A DNA stretch of 64,000 bases. Source: an uncultured Acidimicrobiia bacterium. GTDB lineage: Bacteria > Actinomycetota > Acidimicrobiia > Spongiisociales > Spongiisociaceae. Location of the stretch: positions 1,031,990-1,095,989 of the forward strand of contig OY282370.1 in the NCBI GenBank assembly GCA_958295745.1, written 5' to 3'. Positions 15,241 to 64,000 of this stretch are shown one piece after another. Position 1 is the stretch's first letter. Every line of letters begins with the position of its first letter. Below the pieces are notes generated by a model. The model was not told where the DNA came from. It worked only from the letters and a program-made list of their open reading frames with translations, and did no database searches. Both the position numbers and the translations under genes were made by a program.

Positions 15241-15319
15241 TGTCCTTCCAATCTGTCGTTCGGATCGATTGCTCGGTCACACCGTACGACGGGGGTGTGA
15301 CAGATTCGGGACGGGGGAC

Positions 15320-18221: not shown

Positions 18222-18242
18222 CGGCGGGAAGAGGGGCGCCGT

Positions 18243-19055: not shown

Positions 19056-20098
19056 CCGGGCGCTCCGGCTTCCCCGGAACGGTTCCCTCCGCCCTCGGAC
19101 ATGGCCGAGGCAAAGGTGCAGGCCGTGAGCCGGCCCTCCACCTCGACCGGCAGGGGTTGGGATCCCGTGGAGCACCGGCCGTGCACATCCCCCTCGCCGA
19201 CCCGCAGGGTGAGGCTGCACCGCGGCCAGAAACGGCACCCGGTCGGCCAGGCCCCCACGCTGGGCGCCTCCCCCGGTATCGGTTCGAACCCGCCGGCGAT
19301 GTCCATGCTGGCCGCGGCCACCAGCCCCGCCGTATAGGGATGGCGGGATCGGCGCCGTATGGCCTCCTGCGATCCGGCCTCCATGACGGCGCCGGCGTAC
19401 AGCACCACGATCGAGTCGCACACTTCCTGCACCACCGCCAGATCGTGGGAGACCAGCAACAGGGACATGCCGAGCTGGTCCCGCAGCCTGCGCAGCAGGT
19501 CCAGGATCCTCGCCTGGACCCGCACATCCAGGGCGGTGGTGGGCTCGTCGGCGATGAGCAGAGACGGAGAGCGGGCGAGCGCCCCGGCTATGACCACCCT
19601 CTGGCGCATGCCGCCCGACAGCTGATGGGGCCGCTCGTTCATGACCGAATCCACCCGGGGGATCTCGACCATCTCCAACAGATCCCGGGCTCTCGATCGG
19701 GCCGAGCCTCCGCCGGTGATCTCGGACTTGGCGATCTCGGACTTGGCCGACCGGATCAACCCGGTCAGCTGCTTGCCCACGGTCAGCACCGGGTTGAGGC
19801 CCGCCAGCGAGCTCTGGGGGACGTAGGCGATCTTCCGCCCCCGCACCCGGCGCCACACGGATTCGGGCGCTCCGACCAGCTCCTCCCCTTCGAACCGGAT
19901 CGAACCTCCGGTCACCGCGGCGCTGTGCCGGTGCAGTGTGCCGACCAGGGCCCGGCACAGCATCGACTTGCCGGACCCGGACTCCCCCACCAAGCCGACC
20001 GCCTCGCCCATCTCCACGCCGAGGGTCACCGTGTCGACCACGGGGATGCCCTCTTTGTGGACAGTCAGCCCGATGGACAGATCCTCGACCGCCAGCAC
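19052..20098 (-). CDS. peptide/nickel-type ABC transporter ATP-binding protein (DppD/OppD-like)
   Basis: 348 aa. GESGSGKS, LSGGMRQRV, LLIADEPTTALD. C-terminal oligopeptide-ABC extension with Cys cluster. Contains a 15-bp in-frame tandem duplication (AKSEI x2, ~19727-19756). Confidence 0.8.
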   Translation of the reverse strand: MLAVEDLSIGLTVHKEGIPVVDTVTLGVEMGEAVGLVGESGSGKSMLCRALVGTLHRHSAAVTGGSIRFEGEELVGAPESVWRRVRGRKIAYVPQSSLAGLNPVLTVGKQLTGLIRSAKSEIAKSEITGGGSARSRARDLLEMVEIPRVDSVMNERPHQLSGGMRQRVVIAGALARSPSLLIADEPTTALDVRVQARILDLLRRLRDQLGMSLLLVSHDLAVVQEVCDSIVVLYAGAVMEAGSQEAIRRRSRHPYTAGLVAAASMDIAGGFEPIPGEAPSVGAWPTGCRFWPRCSLTLRVGEGDVHGRCSTGSQPLPVEVEGRLTACTFASAMSEGGGNRSGEAGAPG

Positions 20099-20153
20099 GC
20101 CGCTCAGGCCTCCGCCGCAGGAAGGGTGCGGGCCGAGACGGACACCTTCACCT

Positions 20154-20978
20154 TCACGCCACCAGGGTCTTGGAGGTGCGCTGGCCGATCCCCGCCGCGA
20201 TGAGCGCCACCCCCAGGGCGGTCACCGACAGGAGCACCCCCGGGAACAGGGCCGGCCACCATGCATTGATGATGAACAGCCGGCTGTCGTTCAGCATGCT
20301 GCCCCACTCCGGGGTGGGCGGTTGGACCCCGGCGCCCAGGAACGAGAGCCCGGCGATGGCCAGGAACACCACCACAAAGTCGCTCACCGCGTAGGCGATG
20401 GTTATCGGCATCACGTTCGGGGTCACGTGGAAGCCCAGTATCCGGAACCGCCCGTAGCCGAGGCAGCGGCCGGCCTCCAGGTAGTCCATCTCCCGGATGG
20501 CCAGGGCCCGCCCGCGGGCGACCTTGGCGTAGCGGGCCCAGGCGGTCAGGAACAACCCCAGGAGAATCCCCCTCATCCCCCTGCCGAAAGCGGCCACCAG
20601 CGCTATGACGATGATGAGGGTGGGGAAGGCGTTGATCACCTCGATGGCCAGGTCGCCGACGTACTGGACGATCCGGCTTCTGGTCACCCCGATGATCGAG
20701 CCGACCGCGGTGCCTACGAGCAGGGGGACCGCCACGGCCACTGCGGCGAGGGCGATGTCTATGCGGGCGGCGGTCCAGGTCCGCACGAACACGTCCCGCC
20801 CCAGGTGGTCGGTGCCGAACCAGTATTCGGCGGAGGGCGGGACGTTGGTGTCCGGGCCGCCCCGCAGCGGATCGTGCGGGCTCAACATCGGTATGACGAT
20901 CGAAAGGAGGACGATGGCGGCGACCAGCCCGGCGCCGAAACGCAGGCCGAAGGGCAGCGCCCGCCACCGGGCCCCCAT
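20154..20978 (-). CDS. ABC transporter permease (DppC/OppC-like)
   Basis: ORF track frame is over-extended to 576 aa. The plausible start is MGARWRALPFG at 20978 (16-nt overlap with the upstream permease). Multi-TM, binding-protein-dependent permease signature region. Confidence 0.7.
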   Translation of the reverse strand: MGARWRALPFGLRFGAGLVAAIVLLSIVIPMLSPHDPLRGGPDTNVPPSAEYWFGTDHLGRDVFVRTWTAARIDIALAAVAVAVPLLVGTAVGSIIGVTRSRIVQYVGDLAIEVINAFPTLIIVIALVAAFGRGMRGILLGLFLTAWARYAKVARGRALAIREMDYLEAGRCLGYGRFRILGFHVTPNVMPITIAYAVSDFVVVFLAIAGLSFLGAGVQPPTPEWGSMLNDSRLFIINAWWPALFPGVLLSVTALGVALIAAGIGQRTSKTLVA

Positions 20979-20992
20979 CCGCCGCGCCGCGG

Positions 20993-21988
20993 TCACGACA
21001 TCACCCGCGCCCGGGGGTCGATCACCGCCGCCAGGGTGTCGGCGAGGAAGTGGACGGCCACCACTATGAACCCGAAGATGAACAGGGTGCCCTGAACGAC
21101 CGGATAGTCGCGGGCCAGGACGCCCCTCACCAGGTAGGTGCCGATCCCCGGCAGCACGAACACCGTCTCCACGATGACGGCCGCCGCCAGGTAGGCGCCC
21201 ACGATGTATCCCATCAGCCCAATGACGGGCGCTATGGAAGGGCGCACCAGATACCTCCACATGAAGGCGGTCTTGTCGATCCCCCACACCAGGCCCGTCT
21301 CCACGAACTCCTCGGTGTAGGTCTCCCTGATCGACTCCTGGAGGACCCTCCCGAAGATCATCCCGATCGGGATGCCCGTGACGACGGCGGGCAGGATCAG
21401 GTACTTGATGTTCTGCGGGAAGGCGTACTCGTACCCCGCCACCGGCACCCAGCGCAGCCAGACCGCGAACGGCAGGAGCAGCAGCACCCCCGAGACGAAG
21501 ACCGGGGTGGCGATCAGGGCCGACGACAGCAGGTTGAAGCTCAGCCGGTACAGATTGGAGCGGGTCAGGCCCCCTACGACACCCAGCGGGAGGGCGATGA
21601 TAACGGCCACCAGCATGCCGAACCCGGTGAGCCACAGGGTGACCGGAAGCGTGTCGCCGATCCCGGTCAGCACCGGCCTCGTGGTCATGATCGAACGGCC
21701 GAAATCGAGCTTCAGCAGGTCGCTCATGTACCCGAGGTACTGGTTGACGAACGAACCGGTCAGGTGGAGCTCCTCCCGGAGCCGCTGTATCCTTTCCTCG
21801 CTGGCCAGGTCGCCCAGCAGCACCGCCACGGGGTCCCCCGGGACTATGCGGACCAGGGCGAAGGCCACGAGCGACACGCCCCACGCCACCAGGACCGCCC
21901 TGAGCAGGCGTCTGGCCACGGCGGCGGCTACCCGCTCTTTCCTCTGCTCCAGCTCCTCCGCCGGGGCGTTCACCGTCTCAGTCGTCAT
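20993..21988 (-). CDS. ABC transporter permease (DppB/OppB-like)
   Basis: 331 aa. N-terminal IVPGDP motif. Six predicted TM segments typical of DppB/OppB. Confidence 0.75.
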   Translation of the reverse strand: MTTETVNAPAEELEQRKERVAAAVARRLLRAVLVAWGVSLVAFALVRIVPGDPVAVLLGDLASEERIQRLREELHLTGSFVNQYLGYMSDLLKLDFGRSIMTTRPVLTGIGDTLPVTLWLTGFGMLVAVIIALPLGVVGGLTRSNLYRLSFNLLSSALIATPVFVSGVLLLLPFAVWLRWVPVAGYEYAFPQNIKYLILPAVVTGIPIGMIFGRVLQESIRETYTEEFVETGLVWGIDKTAFMWRYLVRPSIAPVIGLMGYIVGAYLAAAVIVETVFVLPGIGTYLVRGVLARDYPVVQGTLFIFGFIVVAVHFLADTLAAVIDPRARVMS

Positions 21989-22149
21989 GAGCCTCTCGAC
22001 CGGTCTTTCTCAGTGATCTCAGGGATGGATTCGGACGGGCGGCGGGCGGCGGGCGGTGTCCGGCCCCCCGTGTCGGGGGCGGCCCAGGAAGGCGTCGATG
22101 CCGACACCGCTCCGGGGCCGCCGCCGGGTCCGGGTCCGGGGTTGTCCGA

Positions 22150-24051
22150 TCAGCTCGCCGTGACGATCCAGAGGTTCTGGGAAGCCGGTATGACCTGCAG
22201 GGTGTCCAATGGAAGGCGGCTGCCGACCAGGACGGCCCGCTCGCCGACCGGGCAGTAGTTCGCCCCGGCCTCCCAGGCCGCCCGCTGGATATCGGTCTGC
22301 AGACGCTGGGACTCCGCCGCGTCGCCGGTCGACATGGCCACCCCCAGCTCCTCGATCATCCGGGTCACGTCCGGATCGCCGAAGGCCACCGAGTTCGACC
22401 AGAAGTTGTCCGGGTAGTAGATGGTGGTGAGGATGGTGAGGTTGTCGCCTCCGCCGCCCACCCACTGCACGTCGTAGTCCCGGTTGATGAGGGACTGGAT
22501 CGCCACCGCGTCCTCCACGGGCTGGACCTCGGCGGTCACGCCGATGTCGGTCCACTGCTCGGCCACGATGGTCGCCGCGTCCGTCCAGCCGGGCCGGGCG
22601 CCCCAGGTCTGGAGCGGTACGGAGAACCCGTCCGGGTAGCCCGCTTCGGCCAGCAGCCGGCGGGCCTCGTCCAGATTCCGCTCCAGGGGTATCACATCCT
22701 CGTACTCCCACTCGGTCCTGGAACGGGACAGCACGCCCCCCACCGGCTCCGCCGTGCCCAGGAAGGCCCGCTCGCTGATCTCATTGCGGTCGATCGCATG
22801 GCACAGCGCCTTGCGGACCCGCACGTCGGCCAGCGCGCCGGGCGAGTCGCTGCGGATGGCTATCCAGAAGACGCCGCCGATCGGATGGATGATCTGGTTC
22901 ACATCGTCGGGCAGGTCGGCCCGGACCGCCACCGGGATGTCGAAACCGACCTGGGCCGCTCCGGTGCTCACCTGAAGGAGCCGGGAGATCGGGTCCGTCG
23001 CCGACGACAGCACCAGTTTCCGGATGGCCGGCGGGCCGGCGTGGTAGTTCGGGTTGGCCTCGAGGGTCATGGTCGGGGATCCCGGGAACCACTCGGTGAC
23101 CATGTACTGGCTGGCGCTCACCGGCTTCTCGAAGTACTCGACGGGGTCGGCCAGCACCTGCTCGTGCGGGTGCAGGGGCAGCACCTCGCTGCAGACGACC
23201 TTCTGGGAGAAGCAGTTGAACGGCTGGGCAAGGTTGTAGACGATGGTCCGGTCGTCGGGGGCCTCGGCGGATTCCAACGCCACCAGCTGCCCGCCGAAGG
23301 GTCCCTCCGCCTTGGCCCGTTCGAGCGTCACCACGGCGTCCTGGGCGACTACGGGAGTGCCGTCGGAGTAGACGAGGTCCGGCTTCAGCCTGATGGTCAT
23401 CGTCAGCCCGTCGTCGGAATAGGTCGGGAAATCCTCGGCGAGGTCCGGTACGTAGGTGCCGTCTCCCAGATACCTGTACATGTAGCCGCCGAACGCCAGC
23501 AGACCGGCCATGTGGGCCGGGGCCACGTACGGGGCCCGGGCATAGTCGGCCTGGGCCACGAGGCTGGGGGTGCTCACGACCACTTCGTCGAGCATCATGG
23601 CCATGGCGTCCGGCTGGGTGGTGGTCGTGGTGGCGGCTGCCTGCGCGGCGGCCTCACGGGCTTCCTCGGCGGCCTGCTCGGCCGCTGCCTGGGCCTCTTC
23701 GGCCGCTTCCAGATCAGCCTGCGCCTGAGCCAGCGCCGCCGCGGCCGCGTCGGCTTCCGCCTGAGCCGCTTCGTCGCCTTCCATGGCTGCTTCGGCCGCT
23801 GCCTGGGCCGCTTCCATATCGGCCTGGGCCTGGGCCAACGCCGCCGCGGCTTCGGCGGCTTCTTCTTGCGCCGCCGACGCTTCTTGCCGCGCCGTTGCCG
23901 CTTCCGCCGCTGCTGCTTCCGCCGCGAGGCGGGATGCGTCATCCGCCTCCGACGTGTCGTCCCCTCCCCCGCCGCACGCCGCGGCGACCAAGGCAAAAAC
24001 GAGCAACAACCCTACGAGTGTGCGGATACGAACCGGATGCGCCGCCATCAT
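22150..24051 (-). CDS. ABC transporter substrate-binding lipoprotein, SBP family 5 (Dpp/Opp-like) with long Ala/Glu-rich N-terminal linker
   Basis: ORF 22150..24390. Start is at MMAAHPVRIRTLVGLLLVFALVAAACGG (24051), preceded by GGAGAGGAGGA. About 110 aa of AEAQ-rich low complexity is followed by the family-5 SBP fold. Confidence 0.75.
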   Translation of the reverse strand: MMAAHPVRIRTLVGLLLVFALVAAACGGGGDDTSEADDASRLAAEAAAAEAATARQEASAAQEEAAEAAAALAQAQADMEAAQAAAEAAMEGDEAAQAEADAAAAALAQAQADLEAAEEAQAAAEQAAEEAREAAAQAAATTTTTQPDAMAMMLDEVVVSTPSLVAQADYARAPYVAPAHMAGLLAFGGYMYRYLGDGTYVPDLAEDFPTYSDDGLTMTIRLKPDLVYSDGTPVVAQDAVVTLERAKAEGPFGGQLVALESAEAPDDRTIVYNLAQPFNCFSQKVVCSEVLPLHPHEQVLADPVEYFEKPVSASQYMVTEWFPGSPTMTLEANPNYHAGPPAIRKLVLSSATDPISRLLQVSTGAAQVGFDIPVAVRADLPDDVNQIIHPIGGVFWIAIRSDSPGALADVRVRKALCHAIDRNEISERAFLGTAEPVGGVLSRSRTEWEYEDVIPLERNLDEARRLLAEAGYPDGFSVPLQTWGARPGWTDAATIVAEQWTDIGVTAEVQPVEDAVAIQSLINRDYDVQWVGGGGDNLTILTTIYYPDNFWSNSVAFGDPDVTRMIEELGVAMSTGDAAESQRLQTDIQRAAWEAGANYCPVGERAVLVGSRLPLDTLQVIPASQNLWIVTAS

Positions 24052-24349
24052 GTCCTCCTCTCCCGCCTCCCCGAATGCCCGAGGCGGCTGCATGACAATG
24101 CTTGCGACCTTGTGAATATAGCCGCTCGATCTCCGCACCGTCCGGAGGAGGGCAGATTTTTGTCGTCCGGGGATGCGGTCGCGGCAGAGGGGGGCAGGGG
24201 CCGCCAGCGTATAGCCGCAGCAGGCCGGAGGTGAGGGCAACGACGGCGGCCCGGAGTTGGATGGCTGATCTCTTCGGGTTTGGAGGGAACGGGGCGATTT
24301 GGGTGGAGGGGTTCGAGTCGTTGCTGGGATCCCCCGGGAAGTCATCAAG

Positions 24350-24360
24350 CCCCCCCCCCC
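24350..24360. repeat. homopolymeric C11/G11 tract
   Basis: Eleven consecutive C. Lies ~295 nt upstream of the family-5 SBP start, in the tcmP-SBP intergenic region. Confidence 0.9.
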
Positions 24361-24466
24361 GGCTTGCCGGTGTGGGCCCCTGCCCCGCACGGTAACAATA
24401 ACGTGTGTAACCTGCCGTCCGAAGCCTGGCCGGAGAAGGATAACAAGACCCCTCCCCTTCAGTCAT

Positions 24467-25510
24467 TTAAAGAGGCATAGCCAGCTGTGATCCGGGTTGT
24501 AGTTCGGTGATATCGGTAGACTCTCTCTCACATAAACTAGGACGAGATGGTGGCTCGTGTTCATAGAAATATTCATCAGACCGTACCGGGGCATATAGTT
24601 CTTCATCATCCAGATCAAGGAGAGGATTCTGCCCTCTGCTTTCGTATTCTATCTGCCTGCGTAGTCTTCGCGCCTCTGCTCTCATCTTCGGGAACTCCCT
24701 AGCGGCTTTAGCATAAATATCTCTCATAATGCGGTTGCCGGCCTCGTGATCGGTGGCGAAGATCATGTAATATATTATGGAGCCTGGTTCATTTAAGACT
24801 TCAATAGAGTGTGTCCATCGATATCCGAGGTTCTTCTCAAGTCTCCATCGCATTAGGTTTAGATATTCATCTCGCGCTTGAGACGGACTAATCTCTTTTC
24901 TGAGGCGCGCATGATAGATACAAAGCCAGTCTTCCGTACCGTACATTCGATCGATCTTTATAGCATTAACATCGCTAACTCTTGAACCATCATCAACTGG
25001 TAACGTTCTGATAAACATCGGTGCAGCAAATAATAAGAATAATTCGGCCTTCCATTTTCGTCCCTTTTTAAACTGTGCTAAAGCCTTAAGAGTCCGCCAT
25101 TCTGCTTGCATACCGCTGGGATCAACAAAGGCAAAGGTCGGAGCCCGGTTCCACTCCCTTAATATATTTAGCTCCGACGGAATTCGTTCATTACAGTCCC
25201 CACCGATTACCTTCAAATCTCTACCAGGATACTTTGCTAGAAGGGCCTTCTTAAGTCTTGGAGCTTTGTCCTCTTTTTCAAAGAATCTGAGCCGAGTAAA
25301 GGGGGGATCATCAATTGACAGAGCGATAGCCGCTGATCCCTTTAGTGACTCGCCTGTCAGTCTATCTATATTCTCTGGCTCACCTGCAAAAGCATCAATA
25401 TATATCCTCTCGAATGCCTTGTTCTTAGTCGCAGTTGTAAACGCGTCTAGGTAACGCTGCAGGATATCCAGTTTTCCTCTTGTCCAGTAACCCCAAGCAC
25501 GACCCGGCAT
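24467..25510 (-). CDS. tcmP: three-Cys-motif partner protein TcmP-like, with amino-methyltransferase-like DPPF motif
   Basis: ORF 24467..25642. Start placed at ATG 25510, 8 nt after the stop of the upstream DUF5131 gene. Markedly lower GC than the flanks. Contains ERIYIDAFAGEPEN and AIALSIDDPPF, which resembles motif IV of beta-class N6A/N4C DNA methyltransferases. The family name is recalled from memory and needs a profile search. Confidence 0.55.
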   Translation of the reverse strand: MPGRAWGYWTRGKLDILQRYLDAFTTATKNKAFERIYIDAFAGEPENIDRLTGESLKGSAAIALSIDDPPFTRLRFFEKEDKAPRLKKALLAKYPGRDLKVIGGDCNERIPSELNILREWNRAPTFAFVDPSGMQAEWRTLKALAQFKKGRKWKAELFLLFAAPMFIRTLPVDDGSRVSDVNAIKIDRMYGTEDWLCIYHARLRKEISPSQARDEYLNLMRWRLEKNLGYRWTHSIEVLNEPGSIIYYMIFATDHEAGNRIMRDIYAKAAREFPKMRAEARRLRRQIEYESRGQNPLLDLDDEELYAPVRSDEYFYEHEPPSRPSLCERESTDITELQPGSQLAMPL

Positions 25511-25518
25511 AACTATCT

Positions 25519-26268
25519 CTAAACCCCCTCCCTGAGTGCCGGCATCTCGTCGTGGAAGGCGCCGTCGAGTTCTCTTCCGCCAGCTTTGGGGGTGCGGCCG
25601 CCCCACTGCTTGAAGAAGAAGGCCACGCCCTCCGCCCGGCATCGGTCCCGGAGGCCGCGGACCCAGGCTTCGTTCATCGGTCTGGCGTTGTGGCCGCTCT
25701 CACCGCCTGCGATCAGCCATTGGATCGACGAGAGGTCCAAGCTCGGAAGCGGACCGAGCAGGGGTTCGGCGCTGACGAACCGCACCGCCGCTTTGACCTC
25801 GCGCAGGTGATCCACCCTGAAGGTGTAGCGGTCGTTCTCTACGCTCACGCCCATCCAGACGTTGGGAGGCCAGTCCAGGCAGGGCGCAAGCGAGGCGAGC
25901 CGCTTGGAGCGCTTGGTGAGTATCTGGTAGGTATGCCGGGGCGTATCGGCCATGACATCGAAGACACGCCGGATGAAGTCCAACGGCACCCCCGGATGGA
26001 ACAGATCGCTCATCGAGTCCACGAACACGAGCCGCCGCGACCTCCAACCGTAGGGCGCGGCCAACGTCTCCTCGTGCAGGGTCAGAGCGAAGCCCGGTCC
26101 GCTGGTCCTGGGATCCCCGTCGTTCTGGTACTTGGCCAGCCCCATCGCCTTGAGGCGCTTGGCGAGCGTGAGCGCGTAACAGTTGTCGCACCCGGCCGAG
26201 ACCCGATCACAGCCCGTGGTGGGATTCCACGTAGCGTCGGTCCACTCGATCCTCGACCCGTTGCTCAT
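25519..26268 (-). CDS. phage Gp37/Gp68-family (DUF5131) three-Cys-motif protein
   Basis: ORF 25519..26298, likely start MSNGSRIEWTDATWNPTTGCDRVSAGCDNCYA (Cx6CxxC) at 26268. Tightly coupled to the downstream tcmP-like gene. Confidence 0.6.
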   Translation of the reverse strand: MSNGSRIEWTDATWNPTTGCDRVSAGCDNCYALTLAKRLKAMGLAKYQNDGDPRTSGPGFALTLHEETLAAPYGWRSRRLVFVDSMSDLFHPGVPLDFIRRVFDVMADTPRHTYQILTKRSKRLASLAPCLDWPPNVWMGVSVENDRYTFRVDHLREVKAAVRFVSAEPLLGPLPSLDLSSIQWLIAGGESGHNARPMNEAWVRGLRDRCRAEGVAFFFKQWGGRTPKAGGRELDGAFHDEMPALREGV

Positions 26269-26435
26269 GGCCTCCTTCCCTTCGCCGCCAAGCCACATTC
26301 AATATAAAGGCCGGGTATGACATTTCAAGAACCGATCCTGTCTGCGGCGTCCTTCGAGGACGGCCCCCTCTACCTTCCAAGATTTTCGGGCCGGGAGGAG
26401 TGGGAAAAAAATCTCGCCGGGGCGGTACGACCCCC

Positions 26436-26465
26436 TTGACCTATGACACACCCTTCCTATATACT
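26436..26465 (+). promoter_or_regulatory. near-consensus sigma-A-type promoter inside repeat leader (TTGACC - 16/18 nt - TATATA/TATACT)
   Basis: Sequence is cccccTTGACCtatgacacacccttccTATATACTaactatcat. In this copy nothing coding follows. Confidence 0.5.
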
Positions 26466-26696
26466 AACTATCATAGAGCACTCGACAGGGGAAGCCGTAC
26501 AACAAGGGAGCGCAAGCCGACATGTCACAGCCCCTCGATACGGTTACAGACACAGACAACAAACATCACCGCAAAGTCCGCGGAACGCGGTGATCGAACA
26601 GCGAGTCCGGCCCGCAACCCCGCCGGGGGAACCGGGGACGGGCGAGCAACAAGCCAAAACCGAAAACCCAGACCGGGAACCGGGACAGGCCGCCGC

Positions 26697-26740
26697 GCCC
26701 GCCCCGCCCTGAGACCTTGGTGGTGGAGGCGGGGGCGGGC
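26697..26740 (+). other. GC-rich hairpin (gcccgcccc ... ggggcgggc, ~9-10 bp stem) within repeat
   Basis: Inverted repeat seen in both repeat copies (also ~31547-31590). Confidence 0.4.
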
Positions 26741-27057
26741 CCTGGGCGAAGCCCGAAACGCGCCCGAAAAGTCGCGAAAAACGGCGGGTAGCGGCGGCTG
26801 GCGGGGCGGGCGGGATATACAACCATGGGGCGGTCAGGGTTCACAACCGGCCTCTCACCGAGATGGTGGTCGCGAAGAACGGCGGGGCGGATCGAGGGTG
26901 GGTTCCTGGCCGGGGAGCGGGAAACCAAAACCAGAATCAGGCAACAAGAGGCAGACGCACCGTCACCCGTACCACCGCATCACCGGACTTGAGCACTTGA
27001 GCGACAGCCCTATACACGACCTCTAATCCACGGCGTCGCCTGCCGGAGATGGGCTGC

Positions 27058-29736
27058 TCAGGGGGTTGTGATGGTGTTGAGCGCTCGGACGAATAAGGAA
27101 GCCATCTGTGCTCTGGTTACCGGCTGGTCGGGGCAGTACCGGAGGGGGGCGGTGTCGCAGCCCAGGGTCACGCCCGCCCGGTGGAGGCCTTCTATTGCTC
27201 TGGCGGTGGATTCTTCCAAGCCGGCAACGTCGGAGAACAAACCCGTCGGCTGTTCGCCCGCCGCCAGGTTCGGGAAAGCCGCTACCAGCATCCGGGCCAT
27301 ATCGGCGCGGGTTACCACTCCGTCGGGGTTGAACACGCCGTCCACCGGCGGCATGATCCGGTTGGACGCCGCCCACCGGGCGTAGGCTTCGTACCAGGCC
27401 CCTGTCGGGACATCGGTCAGGGGCGCCGGATCGGTCGGAGCAGCAGGAACGGAACCGCCCTGCCGGTGGGTGATCGCCCGGTACAGGAACGCGGCCATCT
27501 GCCGTCTCGCGATCTGATCCTCGGGACAGAACCGGCGGGCTTCGCAACCGACGGTGACACCCCATTCGGCGATCCTCTCGATGTTCGGCTGATGAACGCT
27601 GCCGTCCTCGTCGCAGAACCTGCCCTGACACTCCGGAGCAGCGGACAGAGGGGGAGCAGCCGGCGGAGAAGCAGGATCAGCGGGCGGAGGAACAACAGGC
27701 GGCGGAGAAGGATCAGCGGGCGGCGGCGGAGAAGCAGCCGCGGGAGAGGCAGCCGGCGGAGAAGGATCACCGGACGGCGGCGGAGAAGCAGACGGCGGCG
27801 GAACAACAGGCGGCGGAGGATCCGACGGTGTGCGGTCGTTGTCGGTGATCGTCAACTCAGCGGGAGAAACGATAAACCCTTCAGCCGCGCCGGAGACCCT
27901 TACCGTCTCGGAACCCTCCGCGAAGCTGTCATCGACCACCGCCAAGTCGAAGGTATCCGTACCGCTCGATTGCCCCGCCGTGATCGTCACATCGAAATCG
28001 GCCACCTCGGTGAAATCCTCCACCACTGCGGTGACACCCGCGGCAACACCCGCCACCGACACTGTCACCGTCACGTCCTCCGCCGATGTCCCCGAACCGC
28101 CCCGGAACGCGGCGGTAACCGTCACCGCCCTTACCGGGTCCCCTTCGGCCACAACATCCGGGGACACACTCAAATCGATAAACGACGGGCGGCTGCACGC
28201 TTCGATCCGGCCGTGGTCGGCGACTTCCAGACGGGTGTCCAACTGAGACAACGAGCGGAGCTGGACGGGCAAAGCTCCGGAGAGATAGTTCTCACAGAAA
28301 TAGAACCAGTCCAACTTGCCTTTCCCTTGAGGCGGCGGGGCCAGCCTACCTAACTCAACAGGAATAGAACCCGTAAGACCATTACCATCGAGGAACAACC
28401 GCTTGAGGTTGGTCAAACCACCCAACTCAGCGGGAATAGAACCCGTAAGACCATTACCGTCGAGGACCAACCACTCAAGGTCGGTCAGGTTGCCCAACTC
28501 GGCAGGAATCGAACCCGTAAGATCATTATCATCAAGACGTAAACGTGTGAGGTCGGTCAGGTTGCCCAACTCGGCAGGGATAGACCCCGTAAGACCATTA
28601 CCCTTGAGATTCAACTCCCTGAGGTTGGTCAGGTTGCCCAACTCGGTAGGGATAGACCCCATAAGACCATTATCATTGAGATTCAACTTCAAGAGTCTGG
28701 TCAGGTTGCCCAGATCAGCGGGGATAGAACCCGTAAGACCATTACCATCGAGACCCAAATACTTGAGTTTGGTCAGCTTACCTAGCTCGGCGGGGATAGA
28801 ACTCGTAAGGCCATTACCATCGAGACCCAAATGTGTGAGGTTGGTCAAATCACCCAACTCGGCGGGGATAGAACCCGTAAGACCATTATTGAAAAGAGAC
28901 AAGTACCGGAGATCAGTCTTACCCAACTCAGCAGGAATCGAACCCGTAAGACCATTACTGGAAAGGCCCAAATCCCGGAGGCTGGTCAAATCACCCAGAT
29001 CAGCAGGAATAGAACCCGTAAGACCATTACTGGAAAGGTTCAAATCCCGGAGGTTGGTCAAATCACCCAACTCGGCAGGAATAGAACCCGTAAGACTATT
29101 ATACTTGAGATTCAAATCCACGAGGCTGGTCAAATCACCCAGATCAGCAGGAATAGAACCCGTAAGACTATTATTGGAAAGATACAAACCCCAGAGGTTG
29201 GTCAAATCACCCAACTCGGCAGGAATCGAACCCGTGAGACTATTCCTGGCGAGATCCAACCTCCCGAGGTTGGTCAAATCACCCAGATCAGCAGGAATAG
29301 AACCCGTAAGGCCATTATCGTCAAGAAGCAACTCATTGAGGTTGGTCAAATCACCCAACTCGGCAGGAATAGAGCCCTTGAGATCACTATCGGAAATATC
29401 AACATGGGTCACCCGTTTGGGAGTGGAGCCGACCGTGATACCGTCCCAAGTGGTGATGTCCCCACTCCAGGTGCGTAGTGGATGGTTGGAGCGCAAGCCT
29501 GCATTGAGGGCGTCGTTCGTCCAGTGGTTTCGTATAGCTACCAGGGTTTGGCAGTCAGAGACTAGGCCGGTGTTGGCGGCGGGATCGGCCACGTAGGTCC
29601 CGTCCGAACAGGAAGCCGGATCGAGGGGGGTGATCCCGGGGTCGGTCTGAGCCGCAACAGGCGCGCCCAGAGCGAGGCCCAAACCGCCAACCAGCAAAAC
29701 CACCTTGACCCTGAAAATCCACGACTTCTTGAACAT
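27058..29736 (-). CDS. secreted surface protein: ~16 plant-type leucine-rich repeats + Calx-beta-like domain + Pro-rich linker + two C-terminal SLH domains
   Basis: ORF 27058..29760 with duplicated start MFDKSRGA/MFKKS. Signal LLVGGLGLALGAPVAAQ. 24-aa LRRs of the form LxxLxxLxLxxNxLTGSIPAELGDLTNL. Calx-beta-like block is VVAEGDPVRAVTVTAAF...TFDLAVVDDSFAEGSETVRV. The PPPPVVPPPSASPPPS linker follows. SLH repeats end ...RQMAAFLYRAI and ...VTRAQMASLFVRAL. Confidence 0.75.
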   Translation of the reverse strand: MFKKSWIFRVKVVLLVGGLGLALGAPVAAQTDPGITPLDPASCSDGTYVADPAANTGLVSDCQTLVAIRNHWTNDALNAGLRSNHPLRTWSGDITTWDGITVGSTPKRVTHVDISDSDLKGSIPAELGDLTNLNELLLDDNGLTGSIPADLGDLTNLGRLDLARNSLTGSIPAELGDLTNLWGLYLSNNSLTGSIPADLGDLTSLVDLNLKYNSLTGSIPAELGDLTNLRDLNLSSNGLTGSIPADLGDLTSLRDLGLSSNGLTGSIPAELGKTDLRYLSLFNNGLTGSIPAELGDLTNLTHLGLDGNGLTSSIPAELGKLTKLKYLGLDGNGLTGSIPADLGNLTRLLKLNLNDNGLMGSIPTELGNLTNLRELNLKGNGLTGSIPAELGNLTDLTRLRLDDNDLTGSIPAELGNLTDLEWLVLDGNGLTGSIPAELGGLTNLKRLFLDGNGLTGSIPVELGRLAPPPQGKGKLDWFYFCENYLSGALPVQLRSLSQLDTRLEVADHGRIEACSRPSFIDLSVSPDVVAEGDPVRAVTVTAAFRGGSGTSAEDVTVTVSVAGVAAGVTAVVEDFTEVADFDVTITAGQSSGTDTFDLAVVDDSFAEGSETVRVSGAAEGFIVSPAELTITDNDRTPSDPPPPVVPPPSASPPPSGDPSPPAASPAAASPPPPADPSPPPVVPPPADPASPPAAPPLSAAPECQGRFCDEDGSVHQPNIERIAEWGVTVGCEARRFCPEDQIARRQMAAFLYRAITHRQGGSVPAAPTDPAPLTDVPTGAWYEAYARWAASNRIMPPVDGVFNPDGVVTRADMARMLVAAFPNLAAGEQPTGLFSDVAGLEESTARAIEGLHRAGVTLGCDTAPLRYCPDQPVTRAQMASLFVRALNTITTP

Positions 29737-29774
29737 GGCTCCCCGCGACTTGTCGAACATGGCTCCAAATACTA

Positions 29775-29785
29775 CCCCCCCCCCC
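29775..29785. repeat. homopolymeric C11/G11 tract
   Basis: Eleven consecutive C. Lies 15 nt upstream of the first ATG (29760) and 39 nt upstream of the second ATG (29736) of the LRR/SLH gene, i.e. in its RBS/5'UTR region on the coding strand (as G11). Confidence 0.9.
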
Positions 29786-30022
29786 GGGATTCCAAATCAA
29801 ATCCACCTGCGGGAAGGGCAGGCCGAAGGGTGGACCAAGTGGAGAAGCACCCCCTGACCTGGGATTGATCTGAGGTCCACCCAGGCCGGACATCCCGCCC
29901 TGGTTGAGACAGCAGCGCCTCGTCCGTCCAAGCGGGCGATGCGGTGATCGGCCTCGCAGTCACCGACCGCCGGGCCGGCCGACAGAGTGGGAAAAAAATC
30001 TCGCCGGGGCGGTACGACCCTC

Positions 30023-30052
30023 TTGGCCTATGTCGCACCTTTCCTATATACT
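30023..30052 (+). promoter_or_regulatory. sigma-A-type promoter (TTGGCC - N16/18 - TATATA/TATACT), -10 ending 7 nt before the ATG: predicted leaderless transcript
   Basis: Sequence is tcTTGGCCtatgtcgcacctttccTATATACTaactatcATGgag. No room for an RBS. Confidence 0.5.
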
Positions 30053-30059
30053 AACTATC

Positions 30060-31328
30060 ATGGAGCAACGGAAATATGACTCTAGCCCGATCGGGGCGCT
30101 GCGGGAGGCCTGCCGGCGCGCCGAAGCCGCGGTGGCCTCCCTCAACACCGCGGGGGTGGGTGAGGACCTGTCCGTGGAGGAGTTGGAAGAGCTGGCGGTG
30201 GCGGTGAGGCGGGTCAAGGCCGGGATTGCGGTGTTCGAGTGTTCCTTGACGGGGCGGCTGACCCGGCTGCGGGGTCGGGCGGGCGCGGCCGGGGTGCTGC
30301 GCGACCGGCTGGGTATGACCGGCTACCAGGCCGACCGGATGACCAGGCTGTCCGAGGCGTTGGAGGAGATGCCCAACACCCGGGCCCGGCTCGCCGACGG
30401 GAGCATCACCCTGGCGCATCTCAACACCTTGGCCCGCACCGCCCGGGAATGCGGCGCCCGGGAGGTCGATCAGGACCGGGATCTGCTGGACCGTGCGGCC
30501 CGGACGCCGCCCGACCGGTTCAGCCGCCAGGCCCGGATGTGGGCCGACCGGCGCGCCGCCGACCGGGGCGAGAAGCTGCTGGAGACGCAGCGTTCCCGCC
30601 GTAGAGCGTTCGCCTTCTGGAGCCGGCGCAAACAGATGGGCGTCCTCCACGCCGAACTCGACCCGATACGGTTCGGGCAGATCCGCCAAGCGCTCGATCT
30701 TCACAACGACGCTCTGCGCCGCGCCGACTCGGGACGGGGCGTCCCGCCCGACGAGGTTCGCAACAACGACCAGCGCCGCGCCGACGCCCTGTTCGAGCTG
30801 ATGACCGGCCGTGACGCCGGCGCACTCCACCCCAAACCCGGCATGGCCGGCAAACCGTCCACCAAGCTGATCATCACCGCCGAAGTCGGCCTCATCGACG
30901 GAACCGACCCCGACGGCGCCTGTGAAATCGTCGACACCGGACCCGTGCCCCCGTCGGTTCTCGAACAGCTCTCCCCCGACACCGAGATCAGCGGCGCCCT
31001 GTTCGACCGGAAAGGCAACCCGCTGTGGCTGGGCCGAAGCCGGCGCCTCGCCGCCGCATCCCAGCGCCTCGCCGCCGCCGTCCGCGACCGGGGATGCGTC
31101 TTGTGCGACGCCCCCACCCACCTGACCCAGCTCCACCACATCCGGGACTGGGGCCGCGGCGGGCGCACCGACATCGACAACCTCGCCTCGGTCTGCGGAC
31201 CGGACCACCGCCGCCTCCAGAACCACGGCCTTCGACTCGTCAATACCCCAGGCGGATGGACCACCCGGCCCGGAGACGGACCGCCCGCACCCGCCCTGAC
31301 CGGCCGCCCGGCGAGCAGGCCGCCGTAA
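30060..31328 (+). CDS. DUF222-domain HNH endonuclease (REP13E12-family-like protein)
   Basis: ORF 29904..31328, start at ATG 30060 (MEQRKYDSSPIGALREACRRAEA). The C-terminal end has the HNH motif CVLCDAPTHLTQLHHIRDWGRGGRTDIDNLASVCGPDHRRLQNHG. Confidence 0.75.
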   Translation: MEQRKYDSSPIGALREACRRAEAAVASLNTAGVGEDLSVEELEELAVAVRRVKAGIAVFECSLTGRLTRLRGRAGAAGVLRDRLGMTGYQADRMTRLSEALEEMPNTRARLADGSITLAHLNTLARTARECGAREVDQDRDLLDRAARTPPDRFSRQARMWADRRAADRGEKLLETQRSRRRAFAFWSRRKQMGVLHAELDPIRFGQIRQALDLHNDALRRADSGRGVPPDEVRNNDQRRADALFELMTGRDAGALHPKPGMAGKPSTKLIITAEVGLIDGTDPDGACEIVDTGPVPPSVLEQLSPDTEISGALFDRKGNPLWLGRSRRLAAASQRLAAAVRDRGCVLCDAPTHLTQLHHIRDWGRGGRTDIDNLASVCGPDHRRLQNHGLRLVNTPGGWTTRPGDGPPAPALTGRPASRPP

Positions 31329-31917
31329 ACAACCGGCCGGGAAGCCGTACAACAAGGGAGCGCAAGCCGACATGTCACAGCCCCTCGATACGGTTACAGA
31401 CACAGACAACAAACATCACCGCAAAGTCCGCGGAACGCGGTGATCGAACAGCGAGTCCGGCCCGCAACCCCGCCGGGGGAACCGGGGCCGGGCGAGCAAC
31501 AAGCCAAAACCGAAAACCCAGACCGGGAACCGGGACAGGCCGCCGCGCCCGCCCCGCCCTGAGACCTTGGTGGTGGAGGCGGGGGCGGGCCCTGGGCGAA
31601 GCCCGAAACGCGCCCGAAAAGTCGCGAAAAACGGCGGGATAGCGGCGGCTGGCGGGGGTCGGGATATACAACCATGGGGCAGTCGGGATAACGAGGGTGA
31701 GCGGGAAACACAACCGAGGGGCGAGCGGGATAACAAGGAGCGAGCGGGAAACACAACCATGGGGCGGGCGGGAAACACAACTGACTCTCTCGCCTAGACC
31801 GAGATGGGGATCGGTTGAGTCCAGGGTCGTGGTGTAACGGGGGCGTGGTGAACTGTACCGGGTTCGGTGCAGGTTGGGGTTGCTCGGGTGGGTTGGGAAG
31901 GGTTGGGGGACGTGCTG

Positions 31918-34900
31918 TTACAGGGTTAGCTTGGCTCTTATGGTGGTGTCGTCCAGGGTGGTGTTTAGGGCGTCCTGCCAGGCCCAGACTGTGGTTCCTC
32001 GCCTGTAGGCGGTGGATGATCTTAGGTCGCCGTTTGTGTCGGTTACGGGATCGCTGCTGTCGATCATGCAGGCTTGGGTGCCGGGGCCTGTCTTGCTGAC
32101 CCGGCCTGAGGCGCAGGTTCCGTCGTCGGCGAAGGCGGCGTCTTGGTCGGCGGCGGTGAACAGGTCTACACGGGCGGACCTCACTGGGGCGAAGCCTTCG
32201 GCCCGCACCGATACGACCACGTCTACTTGGCCGCCTTGGAGGGAGGAGGGGTCGGCCTGGATGCTCACCCCGATGGGGCGGGCGATGGTGTGGGAGAGCA
32301 TGCGGGCTATGAACTGGGCCATCTGGGCCCGGGTGACCTTGGCCGCCGGTTTGAAAGCAACCGCTGAGGAACCCCTGGTTACGCCCATCTCGAATATCCG
32401 CCTTATCGCCAGCTGCTCCCGCTCCGAGAGGTCGCCGACATCTTCGAACAGGGTCGGGTCGGGTTCCACGCTGTCCCTGGCGACGCCTCCCTCGCCTACC
32501 GTCACCAGCCCCAGGAAAGCGTCGAGCATGAGGGCCATGTCGGCCCGCGAGATCTCGCCGTGCGGATCGAACTTGTCGCCCCGGCCCGGCATGATTCCCA
32601 GCTGCGCCACCATGTTCATCGCTTCGCGGTCCCGCTCCGACCGGTTGGCTATGTCTACGAATCCCTGATCCTGGGGGGCGGGCAGGGTGATACCCGCCGG
32701 AATCGCCGCCCGGTACAGGAACAGGGCCATCTGCCAGCGGGGGACGATCTCTTCGGGGGCGTATCTGGTGGGGGTCCGCCCCAGGGTGATGCCGTAATAC
32801 CCGATGCAGTTGATGTCCTGCTCGGAGAACCAGCCTGCCACGTCCTGGAAGCCGTACCGCCTCAAAGCCTGACCCACGCAAGCCGTCATCGCAGGCAGGT
32901 CGTCGGCGAACCCGGGCCCGGTACCCCTGCCCACGGCTACCTGATAGGTGCGGGTGGTTATCTTGTCCTCGGCGGTGACCAGCAACGATATGGTCGCCTC
33001 GCCGGTCCCGACCGAGACGTTGTGGCTGCCCGTCGCGATCTTCCCGCCGATCCTGACCGTCGCCTTCGGATGGTTGGGCACCGCCCTCACCTGCACCGTC
33101 CAGACCCTGTTGGAGACCGTGGTCGCGTAGGAAAGCGTGTCCGACGCGAAGACCGGGCTCAACACGCCAGGGGCGATCGCCAGACTCCGCAGGCTCGCAT
33201 CCGTAGATGCTTCCTCCTGTGGCTTTTTGGGATCTTCAGGAGGCGGAGGCCCAGGCGGCTCAGGCGGAGGCGGAGGACCAGGAGGATCAGGCGGAGACGG
33301 AGGATCAGGAGGATCAGGCGGCGACGGCGGATCTTCCGTAGGCGGCGGAGGAGGCTCTTGCGTGGTGACGTCTTTGATCGTCACGCTGGCGTCGCGAACT
33401 TCGAACTTGCCGCCCACGTCGGTGCCGGCGATGCGGATCGACTCGTCGCGCTCGGTCTCCGAGTCCTGGCTGGCTGTCAACTTGAAGGTCCCGGCGGCTT
33501 GCTGGCTCTCCTTGTTGATGGTCACCGTGAAGGTCGACTTGTCCACCTGATAATCGCTCGACATGGCGGTGCCGTCGGCCACCTGTATCTGCACCATCGT
33601 GTTGGCCGCCCACTTGGGACCGTTGCCGAAGGAGGCGGTAACGGTAACCGTCTGGGCGCTGTCCCCCTCGTTCACGGAGCTGCGGTCCGCGCTCAGCAGA
33701 ATTGCGTTCGGGTCGGGGTCGGTGTCTTTGATGTTGACCAGCAACGGGTCGTTGAAAGTGAACTCGGCGGCGGTTCCGGTTACCTTGACCTTGTCGTTCT
33801 CCCCGGCGATGTCGTCGTCCTTGGCGGTCAGAGTGAACGACTCCTGCTTGGAGTTCTCGCCCGCCGGGATGACGATGGTGAAATTGGTCGGGTTGGCCGT
33901 GTAGTCGGTGGCCTGGGTGGACCCTTCGGCGGTGACCTCAACCAATACCGTCACCGGTTCCGTCAGCACCTTGTTATCGGGGAAGGCGGCCGTGATCGTG
34001 ATCGTTTCGATCGTCCCTTCGGAGACCTCGGAATCGTCCGAGCTCAGGTTGATCTTCGTGGGGCGCGCGTCCCCGTCGGTGATCGTCAACGATGTGGGAT
34101 TCACCGTGACCTCCGCCGCCGCCGTGATCGAACCCGTGATCTGCAACGCTTCCGTCTCATCTGCAACGTTGTCGTCCGTCGTGGACAGCATGAACGTCCC
34201 CGACCCCGACGATCCACCCTCCGCGATCACCACATCGAACGTCTCACCACCGACCGGAATCGAATAATCCTCGGCCTGCGCCGTACCCGCACCCACCGAC
34301 ACCGACACCGACGTTTCCGCCTCGACGACACCGCCCATCGGCGCCGTCGCGGTAACCGTCACCGTCCGGTTCGACACCCCCTCATCGATCGAGGTCTGAT
34401 CCCCCGACGTTCCGCTGTCGGCGTCCACGGACAGGTCGATGGTTCCACCGCCGATGATGGTCAACGAAGCCTCGTTGACCGTGAACCCGGTGGCCGTACC
34501 CGTGATCTGCAACGCGTCCGCCTCGGCCACCATATTGTCGGTATAGGTCGTCAGTGTGAAGGTCGCCGAATTCGACCCATCACCCGCTGCGATCACCACA
34601 TCGAAAGTCTCCTGGCCCGACGGAATCGAATAATCCGACCCCTCCGCCGTACCCGCACCCACCGACACCCGAACCGTCGTATTCGACTCCACCGTTCCAC
34701 CCCCGGACACCTTCGCCGTAACCGTCACCGTCCGTCCCGACACCCCTTCGCCGAGCGAGGTCTGATCCTCGTCCGTGCTGCTGTCGGCATCAACCGACAG
34801 ATCGATGGTGGAGTCGGAATCGGTGATCTCGAGCGATGCTGGGCTGACAGTGAGTCCATCCGCGGTGGTGGTACCGCTGATCGACAACACATCCGTCTCG

Positions 34901-63980: not shown

Positions 63981-64000
63981 CGCCCCTGCTGCCCGCCGTT

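Follow-up and report, generated by a model that had tools for sequence, protein, structure and literature searches.

A REP13E12-type HNH nuclease gene coupled to a dispersed noncoding element, and a neighbouring copy of the unit that has most likely lost the ORF

Genes of the DUF222/HNH ('13E12 repeat') type are abundant in Actinomycetota, including Mycobacterium tuberculosis, and neither a function nor a mechanism of mobility has been assigned to them. M. tuberculosis carries seven REP13E12 copies, and we know of no promoter-bearing noncoding partner or ORF-less twin described for them. In M. tuberculosis these loci are gene-conversion hotspots, their use as a phiRv1-type prophage attachment site is a feature specific to that species, and in the 2026 literature they 'lack defined biological function' (PMC13061034). 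The locus analysed here, in a 64,000-nt stretch of DNA (the window), resembles REP13E12 in its actinobacterial host, in a protein of comparable length (about 420 aa) with a C-terminal HNH motif and full-length homologues of DUF222+HNH architecture (PF02720 + PF01844), and in the apparent gene conversion between associated repeat copies, as in M. tuberculosis (PMC13061034). It differs in that the Pfam DUF222 model does not match the protein, in that only one close HNH gene was seen for the source genome, and in that repetition affects a noncoding element lying downstream rather than the gene itself. Here, a REP13E12-type gene is physically joined to a dispersed noncoding element that is under constraint and has a promoter-like motif, a probable natural ORF-less derivative adjoins the HNH gene copy, and concerted evolution between the two is clear; the host is an uncultured member of the Actinomycetota whose nearest named relatives by DnaB are Acidimicrobiia, and all evidence is comparative.

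The noncoding part invites a second comparison, with promoter- or sRNA-carrying dispersed repeats and MITE-like elements, such as the Correia/NEMIS elements of Neisseria and multi-copy sRNA gene families. Like these it is dispersed, ~300 nt long and noncoding, with hairpins and a promoter-like motif, has strain-variable copies and serves as an insertion-sequence target. Unlike these, it showed neither consistent terminal inverted repeats nor target-site duplications: a repeat finder run over 24000-34000 returned no inverted repeats, no target-site duplication was recognised, and the T-run-CGCG ... CGCG-A-run that brackets the units in two related contigs (L003 and L028) is represented in the window copies by an A-run in direct orientation. 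It also differs in having no transposase partner (the only ORF of copy B, the HNH protein, contains no transposase domain), in the coupling of one subfamily to an HNH gene, and in having no Rfam family, the window giving no Rfam 15 match at gathering thresholds and 26350-27050 only a chance-level hit (E 3.2).

Two copies of the unit, in direct orientation, are separated by 3.1 kb. Copy B (29971-31813, plus strand) is the full composite of leader, HNH ORF, noncoding element and tandem repeats, while copy A (26387-26872, plus strand), delimited by BLAST and a repeat finder against copy B, consists of the leader, an 8-nt ORF remnant, an 8-nt filler and the complete noncoding element. The leaders (26398-26480 and 29985-30067) are 93% identical (77/83) and the flanks (26489-26838 and 31339-31687) 98% identical, with a single base difference in the first 300 nt; divergence is 7% for leaders versus 0.4% for flanks. 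Beyond the flank, similarity drops to 74% in a tail reaching 26872/31813. Copy A has a degenerate G-rich repeat tail (26803-26872, plus strand) and copy B tandem ~21/42-nt G-rich repeats of GAGCGGGAAACACAAC units (31652-31813, plus strand), whose copy number differs among strains. The left end of copy A carries an A-run, GGGAAAAAAATC (26402-26413, plus strand; 29989-30000 in copy B), and similar A-run/CGCG motifs occur at the left end of copy C, a diverged relative described below, and of the L003, L028 and L029 units. The segment specific to copy B (30068-31338, 1271 nt) starts with the ninth ORF base and ends 10 nt beyond the stop codon, and in its place copy A has the 8 nt CTCGACAG (26481-26488). 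The ATG of copy B (30060-30062) is ATA in copy A (26473-26475), so that the remnant and filler (26473-26488, plus strand) begin with ATAGAGCA against ATGGAGCA in copy B and ATGAAGCA in L003/L028; the copy A of a second strain, L001, has the identical junction. These alignments bear out a repeat pair with ORF-precise boundaries, as proposed in the initial annotation, which was also right about the ORF but had given it 423 aa and the filler 9 bp; the product is 422 aa (423 codons including the stop) and the filler 8 nt.

The nuclease gene (30060-31328, plus strand) encodes a DUF222/HNH-family homologue for which public gene calls give an identical 422-aa product (P0122). Residues 346-388 match PF01844 (HNH, a beta-beta-alpha-metal nuclease domain) with an E-value of 2.4e-7, clearing the curated cut-off, and contain the Cys/His motif CxxC...HH...N...CxxDH, seen in the translation as CVLCD...LHHIRDW...DIDNL...CGPDHRRL. 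Of the DUF222+HNH architecture initially assigned, the HNH part is thus present by Pfam, whereas DUF222 (PF02720) was not matched by hmmscan even at E<=10 and is supported through homologues only: since 39 of 41 full-length homologues (44-72% identity) carry PF02720 (E about 1e-145 to 1e-92), this region is probably homologous but diverged. The assignment to the DUF222/REP13E12 protein family holds on the HNH match and these homologues. An AlphaFold2 model was confident for residues 10-165 only, and a Foldseek search of the PDB with it returned nothing at E<0.4, apart from a weak Noc/ParB-like hint that we do not take as evidence; PADLOC gave no match for the protein. As the ORF is under purifying selection (dN/dS 0.28 versus L028), we infer a functional nuclease; the unit may be mobile. 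Mobility in the REP13E12 sense, claimed in the initial annotation, is demonstrated by nothing here: the window has a single HNH ORF, and among the best 120 homologue clusters only the window's own (P0001/P0122) has the source contig (3,007,243 bp) as its longest contig, a single close HNH paralogue for the source genome.

By sequence comparison, the flank shared by copies A and B is a member of a dispersed, apparently previously undescribed family of putative noncoding elements of about 250-300 nt. Its members are ordered as a promoter-like motif, a hairpin (H1) 13-17 nt later, a variable middle, a G-rich box (G-box) and a small GNA-loop hairpin, followed by a CGCGAAAAAC-type end and G-rich tandem repeats of strain-variable number. 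The conserved core spans 26543-26787 in copy A (plus strand; nhmmer E 3e-66, covariance model R1 195.6 bits) and 31393-31637 in copy B (plus strand; nhmmer and R1), and ends at or near the motif GTCGCGAAAAACGGCGGG (26771-26788, plus strand) in L003, L028 and the L001 copy B. Copy C, a diverged solo member on the minus strand (63388-63703), was found by nhmmer at E 4.6e-9; its E-value of 8.7e-35 comes from a profile rebuilt with copy C itself included, and its R1 score of 139 bits from a model whose alignment already included it. Its parts, all on the minus strand, are a promoter motif (63639-63660), H1 (63598-63623), G-box (63436-63453) and end motif (63388-63404), followed by four 24-nt G-rich tandem repeats (63301-63395). 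Solo copies detected by nhmmer and covariance model are copy C in the window (63389-63679, minus) and further ones in related metagenomic contigs, namely L028 (390-599, minus), L031 and L032. The L003/L028 units come from other organisms and a different locus, where NIPSNAP lies upstream and SbcCD, convergent, downstream; aligned with copy B, they match it at about 75% identity over leader, ORF and flank as far as 31632.

Across this family many frameshifting indels exclude coding, so the core is regarded as noncoding, and since it evolves at about half the synonymous rate (Jukes-Cantor distance 0.32 between window and L028, against a dS of 0.63 for the adjacent ORF) it is constrained. The ORFs within copy A (208, 120 and 89 aa) were rejected as real genes: none has a Pfam match, and frameshifting indels separate family members. 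We likewise rejected the flank as a 3' UTR of SLH genes, because the core also turns up behind the HNH gene at an unrelated locus, and between genes of the same orientation. The coupling to the nuclease seems clade-specific, as neither nhmmer nor the covariance model found a core downstream of the HNH homologues in L004 (61% amino-acid identity) and L029. A scan of genome contigs with GAGCAMCAAGCCAAAACCG gave 23 single, chance-like matches in unrelated taxa, none of which extends by BLAST, and conserved core patterns had zero matches in the metagenome contigs and viral contigs scanned.

Two promoter-like sites accompany the composite units. P1, in the leader, reads TTGACC-18-TATACT in copy A (26436-26465, plus strand; 10/12) and TTGGCC-18-TATACT in copy B (30023-30052, plus strand; 9/12), and sites of this type number 3 in the region versus 1.1 expected. 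In copy A it includes the lineage motif TGACACACCC-N6-TATACT (26444-26465). The promoter-like leader was expected from the outset to stop 7 nt before the ATG, and in copy B the -10 hexamer does end there; the gap is kept in the L003 and L028 homologues (76% amino-acid identity), and this conserved spacing favours a leaderless mRNA, making the HNH gene's ATG probably leaderless. A P1-like arrangement also precedes the homologues in L004 and L029, where the motif TGTCAYASCC-N6-TANNNT stands 7-8 nt before the ATGs. P2, an exact match to this motif, lies at the head of the noncoding core in copy A (TGTCACAGCCCCTCGATACGGT, 26523-26544, plus strand), and the motif recurs in copy B (31373-31394, plus strand). 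With 7 sites in the window versus 0.09 expected, 3 of them upstream of dnaB, ssb and a DUF5131 gene, it proved, from its distribution in the sequence, to be the general promoter-like motif of the lineage, and for this reason we down-weighted the similarity of P1 and P2 as a sign of a duplicated module. Solo members of the family show a single promoter motif instead of two and lack P1. Because the flank has its own P2 and the family exists without the HNH gene, the flank is an independent element, and calling the candidate RNA a mobile-element derivative is accordingly too simple. This RNA had been predicted to be such a derivative and to start at the leader in copy A, but with P2 present its start need not be there.

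We propose, with a probability of roughly 0.6, that the locus combines a dispersed noncoding element, a subfamily of it bearing an HNH gene, the origin of copy A by loss of the ORF, and later gene conversion between A and B. Under this model, one subfamily would have a DUF222/HNH (REP13E12-type) gene immediately upstream of the element, as in copy B and the L003/L028 loci, with a promoter-like leader of its own, P1, and an ATG that is probably leaderless. The ancestor of copy A would have been such a composite unit, from which the ORF was removed (1271 nt replaced by 8 nt), leaving P1, ATA as a mutated start, and the element intact; after this loss, gene conversion would have gone on exchanging sequence between the elements of A and B. 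The element may be transcribed from P2, and in copy A also from P1, into a structured plus-strand RNA, or may at least act on the plus strand.

The strand on which the element acts bears on its main competitor, a possible though less probable reading in which the core works as DNA or on the minus strand, as a recombination or protein-binding site or as a terminator or insulator for convergent genes. In copies A, B, C and L003/L028 the element points towards the 3' end of a convergent gene; the repeats are C-rich on the minus strand, and weak terminator-like sites were called on that strand only. An IS110-family element targets, and recognises as DNA, the G-box in three family copies, including an insertion in L001 at the position corresponding to 26724/26725. 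The GC hairpin initially described as conserved is present in copies A (GCCCGCCCCGCC, 26697-26708, pairing with GGCGGGGGCGGGC, 26728-26740) and B (31547-31558/31578-31590), where in copy A it forms, with the G-box and a GGGC-GAA-GCCC hairpin (26744-26754), the block 26697-26754 on the plus strand; family-wide, however, only its 3' arm (the G-box) is kept as sequence while the 5' arm drifts. A thermodynamic signal is absent too, the folding energy of the 401-nt region being no better than that of shuffles (z -0.95 plus, +0.52 minus).

Against the DNA or minus-strand reading stands the pattern of change within stems. Hairpin H1 (ATCACCGC ... GCGGTGAT, 26565-26594, plus strand) is family-wide, with compensatory and wobble changes. 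Across the predicted stems 93.5% of cells pair, compared with 35-53% in slid controls; compensatory double changes occur in 3 pairs, and the observed score was reached by 4 of 500 shuffles, in a comparison that spans about 6 independent lineages, uses a structure derived from the same sequences and includes mostly pairs that never vary. One-sided stem changes are nearly all to G·U, which pairs on the plus strand only, and these 17 cells account for the plus-strand excess (93.5% versus 85.4% on the minus strand). In diverged copies H1 folds at -13.8 and -13.3 kcal/mol on the plus strand but at only -5.3 and -5.1 kcal/mol, respectively, on the minus strand, every well-preserved copy has a lineage-type promoter-like motif 13-17 nt upstream of H1, and the L031 copy lies between two co-oriented, not convergent, genes. 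The G·U-preserving changes, together with the internal promoter motif, suggest an RNA function for the element.

A second competitor, somewhat less likely still, concerns the origin of copy A, which the initial annotation had left as either precise ORF loss or a pre-insertion state. In a homing scenario copy A would be the empty target, and the HNH ORF a free-standing gene that inserts between leader and element and spreads by cleavage and repair. HNH nucleases include homing enzymes, and free-standing HNH homing endonuclease genes of phages and bacteria resemble this locus in the nuclease gene with its own promoter-like leader, in ORF-plus and ORF-minus versions with common flanks and boundaries hugging the ORF (here the ORF-specific segment ends at most 8 nt from the start codon and 10 nt from the stop), and in flank gene conversion. 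This last feature, seen also at the REP13E12 hotspots of M. tuberculosis (PMC13061034), is the repair route that homing would use. At our locus, both window copies read GGGAGCGCAAGCC where both L001 copies read GGGA--ACAAGCC, while leaders remain A-type or B-type across strains; as the flanks are homogenised within each genome, gene conversion between the A and B flanks is indicated.

Homing is nevertheless disfavoured, and ORF loss favoured, by what copy A retains. It holds P1, which is kept with the HNH gene unit in L003, L028, L004 and L029 and is missing from solo family members, as well as P2 and the first 8 ORF nt with ATG changed to ATA. Copy A is therefore most likely a deletion derivative and not a virgin homing site, a polarity argued on parsimony rather than on an orthologous empty site. 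Moreover, copy B and its ORF were found in 4/4 strains examined (window, L001, L002 and L030), with no ORF-less allele at the B locus among the three other strains; copy A was found in the window and L001, and in L030 the whole of copy A is missing, not the ORF alone, in a rearranged neighbourhood. Copy A has not been invaded by the ORF despite coexisting with it 3.1 kb away, with leaders 7% diverged. Unlike typical homing pairs, A and B are paralogous loci rather than alleles, the ORF-less copy still carries part of the ORF start, and a protein-based scan of viral contigs found no relatives.

We regard it as improbable, though worth naming, that the HNH nuclease and the element would form a functional pair, either with the element family serving as a landing platform on which the gene cassette moves from copy to copy via cleavage and gene conversion, or with the element's RNA as a partner of the nuclease. 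If true, such a pair would offer the first mechanistic handle on the enigmatic REP13E12-type genes. The specific version in which the core would act as an OMEGA-like RNA that guides or scaffolds the HNH protein, solo copies providing such RNAs in trans, is very unlikely. As in IscB/TnpB systems, a nuclease ORF lies beside a conserved noncoding region (~250 nt, directly 3' of the ORF), solo noncoding copies occur elsewhere, here with their own promoter-like motif, and among solved structures sequence comparison gave the HNH domain of an IscB as the sole relative that is not a designed protein. The likeness is, however, confined to that domain: there is no RuvC domain, the NCBIfam IscB model matches the HNH segment alone (20.7 bits versus a cut-off of 175), and the structure model is uninformative. 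Nor is the association conserved across the large protein family, no core lying beside the homologues in L004 and L029, which are 61% identical or less, and neither a variable guide-like segment nor IS ends were found here.

Least credible is a plain local segmental duplication with chance deletion and a neutral, functionless flank, for although A and B are close, co-oriented and nearly identical in their flanks, the unit is also found at a different locus in other organisms, diverged copies stand alone in the window and on other contigs, the core changes at half the synonymous rate, and leaders and flanks diverge unequally.

Besides the composite unit and its ORF-less neighbour, the comparison also defines an IS110-family element that targets the noncoding family and a lineage-specific promoter-like motif.

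The two repeat copies share a leader (26398-26480 in copy A and 29985-30067 in copy B; 93% identity) and a 3' flank (26489-26838 and 31339-31687; 98% identity, with 1 mismatch in the first 300 nt), beyond which similarity continues as a weaker tail to 26872 and 31813, respectively. The segment that is present only in copy B (30068-31338; 1271 bases) runs from base 9 of the HNH ORF to 10 nt past its TAA stop, and copy A has 8 bases, CTCGACAG (26481-26488), in its place. This agrees with the initial annotation, which had described a leader-flank repeat with an ORF in copy B only and boundaries that hug the ORF. The stretch around the ORF start reads ATAGAGCA in copy A and ATGGAGCA in copy B. Copy A therefore keeps the first 8 nt of the HNH ORF, a start (ATGRAGCA) that is conserved in L003 (Logan SRR17504028) and L028 (ENA ERZ23496352), two loci whose HNH homologues belong to a single protein cluster.

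Copy A also contains two promoter-like motifs, P1 in the leader and P2 at the head of the noncoding core, compared to one in solo family members that lack the HNH gene. As copy A combines two such motifs with an 8-nt ORF start, it is most simply read as a B-like composite unit that has lost its ORF. Deletion would then be its origin, and the 8-nt filler together with the absence of microhomology would fit end-joining repair. The initial annotation had allowed either precise ORF loss or a pre-insertion state; its observation is confirmed, but its interpretation is only partly supported. If copy A were a pre-insertion site, the ORF would have to borrow its first codons and promoter from the target, and an ORF-less allele of copy B was not seen in four strains.

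A sigma-70-type scan predicted sites in both leaders (TTGACC-18-TATACT at 26436-26465 in copy A; TTGGCC-18-TATACT at 30023-30052 in copy B). The gap between the end of the -10 hexamer and the HNH ATG is 7 nt, as had been proposed from the sequence. We observed a further motif, TGTCAYASCC-N6-TANNNT, seven times in the window, where 0.09 occurrences would be expected. One site each precedes dnaB, ssb and the DUF5131 gene; these three lie on the minus strand, at 13708-13729, 15281-15302 and 26301-26322. The others are in P1 of copy A (26444-26465), in the flank's own P2 of copies A (26523-26544) and B (31373-31394), and, at 63639-63660(-), in copy C, a diverged solo family member. It recurs in L004 (6002-6023, 7291-7312) and L029 (186-207, 1486-1507, 2164-2185), loci with more distant HNH homologues, where it stands 7-8 nt ahead of ATG codons. 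As the motif also lies upstream of these other genes and ATGs, we regard it as a general promoter-like signal of the lineage, and its position 7-8 nt before ATGs implies that leaderless genes are probably widespread and promoter geometry unusual. Only about 11 nt separate its TGTCA box from the -10 hexamer downstream. Transcription from P1 would produce a leaderless HNH mRNA, whereas the product of P2 would be a plus-strand RNA at least about 240 nt long. Starts are predicted near 26473 and 30060 for P1, near 26551 and 31401 for P2, and at about 63632 on the minus strand for copy C.

The units in L003 and L028 have other neighbours than the window copies: NIPSNAP lies upstream, and SbcCD is convergent on the downstream side. 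Their DNA and copy B are about 75% similar over the leader, the ORF and the sequence beyond it as far as 31632 (motif TCGCGAAAAAC). Within this alignment the part after the ORF contains indels of 1, 2, 15 and 18 nt, indicating that it is noncoding, and its Jukes-Cantor distance of 0.32, compared to a dS of 0.63 for the adjoining ORF, argues that the core is constrained. A core profile search recovered solo copies without an HNH gene at window 63389-63679(-) (copy C), at L028 390-599(-), and in L031 and L032; a covariance model confirmed the same copies and found none further in the 164 kb searched. Neither profile nor covariance model detected the core downstream of the distant HNH homologues in L004 (61% amino acid identity) and L029. 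From these sequence comparisons, we consider the flank an element in its own right and define here a dispersed, apparently undescribed noncoding repeat family. Its members contain, in order, the promoter-like motif, a first hairpin (H1), a variable middle, a G-box (GGTGGTGGnGGCGGGGGnGGG), a GNA-loop hairpin (GGGC-GAA-GCCC in the window, CCGGC-GAA-GCCGG in copy C, GCCC-AGA-GGGC in L031), a CGCGAAAAAC-type end and G-rich tandem repeats (units of 21/42 nt in copy B and 24 nt in copy C), whose copy number varies among strains.

Several observations concern the surroundings of family members. Direct repeats of 110 nt (63187-63296 and 63877-63986; 95% identical) flank copy C, and three 69-nt tandem units (63753-63946) precede it, with a fourth on its other side; this satellite-like array may run past the window end. 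About 90 nt ahead of the promoter motif are common to the solo copies of L031 and L032 (IS-less reconstruction). In L032 (5324 region) an aminotransferase gene takes its last ~12 codons and stop from this stretch, and the element may thus have reshaped the end of that gene. In L003, but not in L028, the core is followed by an additional segment of ~105 nt (about 2595-2700), which the inverted motif TCGCGAAAA ... TTTTCGCGA delimits. The ends of elements repeatedly show T4CGCG/CGCGA4 motifs (L028 3812-3830; window 63684-63703 and 63388-63425), which might serve as sites for recombination or for recognition of the ends.

We asked if the core has features of a structured RNA. H1 begins 13-17 nt past the promoter-like motif, and its arms are AUCACCGC/GCGGUGAU in the window copies, AUCGCUGCC/GGCGGUGAU in L031 and AUCGCAG/CUGUGAU in copy C, with one position passing from C-G through U·G to A-U across copies. 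In the RNAalifold consensus 93.5% of cells are paired, compared to 35-53% when partners are slid, and three pairs show double changes; 4 of 500 shuffles match the observed score. The 17 G·U cells favour the plus strand (93.5% versus 85.4% on the minus strand), and H1 stability in diverged copies is much higher on the plus than on the minus strand. Against a structured RNA, overall folding energy was no better than that of shuffles, and an Rfam search returned no match. The GC hairpin that the initial annotation called conserved is present in copies A and B, but only its 3' arm is kept across the family.

The ORF at 30060-31328 encodes 422 amino acids, and an identical product exists in public records (P0122). 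The predicted DUF222+HNH architecture was recovered in part: a Pfam search matched HNH (E 2.4e-7), whereas DUF222 gave no hit even with the threshold relaxed to E<=10. As PF02720 is present in 39 of 41 full-length homologues (44-72% identity), we place the protein as a probable diverged member of the DUF222/HNH family. Relative to the L028 homologue (72% identity full-length by MAFFT; 76% is the local BLASTP value for its cluster representative), dN/dS is 0.28, and the gene is therefore under purifying selection. The gene is frameshifted in L002 (1744-3286; 282 + 250 aa) and L003 (1046-2286; stop after 83 codons from the ATG); either these copies are decaying or the assemblies are in error. 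In an AlphaFold2 model (30060-31325), confidence is limited to residues 10-165, the N-terminal helical region. Foldseek gave one fold hint, a Noc/ParB DNA-binding domain (prob 0.93 and 0.72, E about 0.6-1.5), too weak for use, and neither a solved structure nor an informative match by fold was found.

The REP13E12/DUF222-HNH gene family is still described as without defined function (PMC13061034), and the elements defined here offer testable substrates for this uncharacterised nuclease family. These genes are the nearest known kind; here the gene is single-copy as far as seen and, unlike in that family, the repeated and constrained part is a noncoding partner element. A free-standing homing endonuclease is alike in outline, but here the versions with and without the ORF lie at different loci and are not alleles. 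The likeness to OMEGA systems is superficial only. On sequence grounds, we infer each functional step.

Among named DnaB relatives, the best (54-65% identity) come from MAGs of Acidimicrobiia and other Actinomycetota. Three related strains came from one long-read metagenome (ERZ19489113): L001 contains copies A and B, L002 contains copy B with a frameshifted ORF, and L030 contains copy B without copy A. Synonymous-site divergence of the ORF between strains is about 0.6-1.5%. The same segment reads GGGAGCGCAAGCC in both copies of the window and GGGA--ACAAGCC in both L001 copies, while differences between A- and B-type leaders persist across strains (7% divergence). As flanks match within genomes and leaders stay type-specific across strains, the flanks exchange sequence by gene conversion and evolve in concert; M. 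tuberculosis REP13E12 loci show the same within-genome exchange (PMC13061034).

Rearrangement has affected the region of L030 that corresponds to window 18222-27041, with inversion of the adjacent DUF5131/TcmP pair. This pair (TcmP, three-Cys-motif partner; 24467-26298(-)) matches the PADLOC candidate defence system PDC-M41 A/B and directly adjoins copy A on its left. As it is inverted in L030, where an AT-rich segment (6206-6981; ORF called at 6292-6933) follows the DUF5131 gene, it is a strain-variable cassette. Indel hotspots lie at the junction of HNH stop and element and in the repeat tail (L030 about 11272-11320; L001 about 11576-11632; L002 3360-3540). L030 contains a 44-nt insertion flanked by CCGGCCGGG/CCCGCCGGG, the repeat tail is wholly missing from L001 copy B, and repeat counts vary in every strain.

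A 1.3-kb IS110-family IS (DEDD_Tnp_IS110 + Transposase_20) lies at the same G-box sequence in three family copies: L001 5366-6665 (window 26724/26725; frameshifted), L031 3753-5055 and L032 3752-5121. Its target is GGTG^TGG(A/C)GG(C/T)GGGGGC(G/T)GGGCCC (also GGTG^TGGNGGNGGGGGCNGGGCCC), apparently with a TG duplication. The source genome's contig encodes a 97% identical transposase (P0124) outside the window. Two ORFs converge on the element copies: a 900-aa LRR + SLH protein (27058-29760(-)) with 72-nt tandem repeats and an 18-nt repeat tract, and a 9515-aa ORF (31918-60465(-)) that combines long internal repeats with cadherin-like and SLH domains; giant SLH-anchored surface proteins are notable in an actinobacterial lineage.
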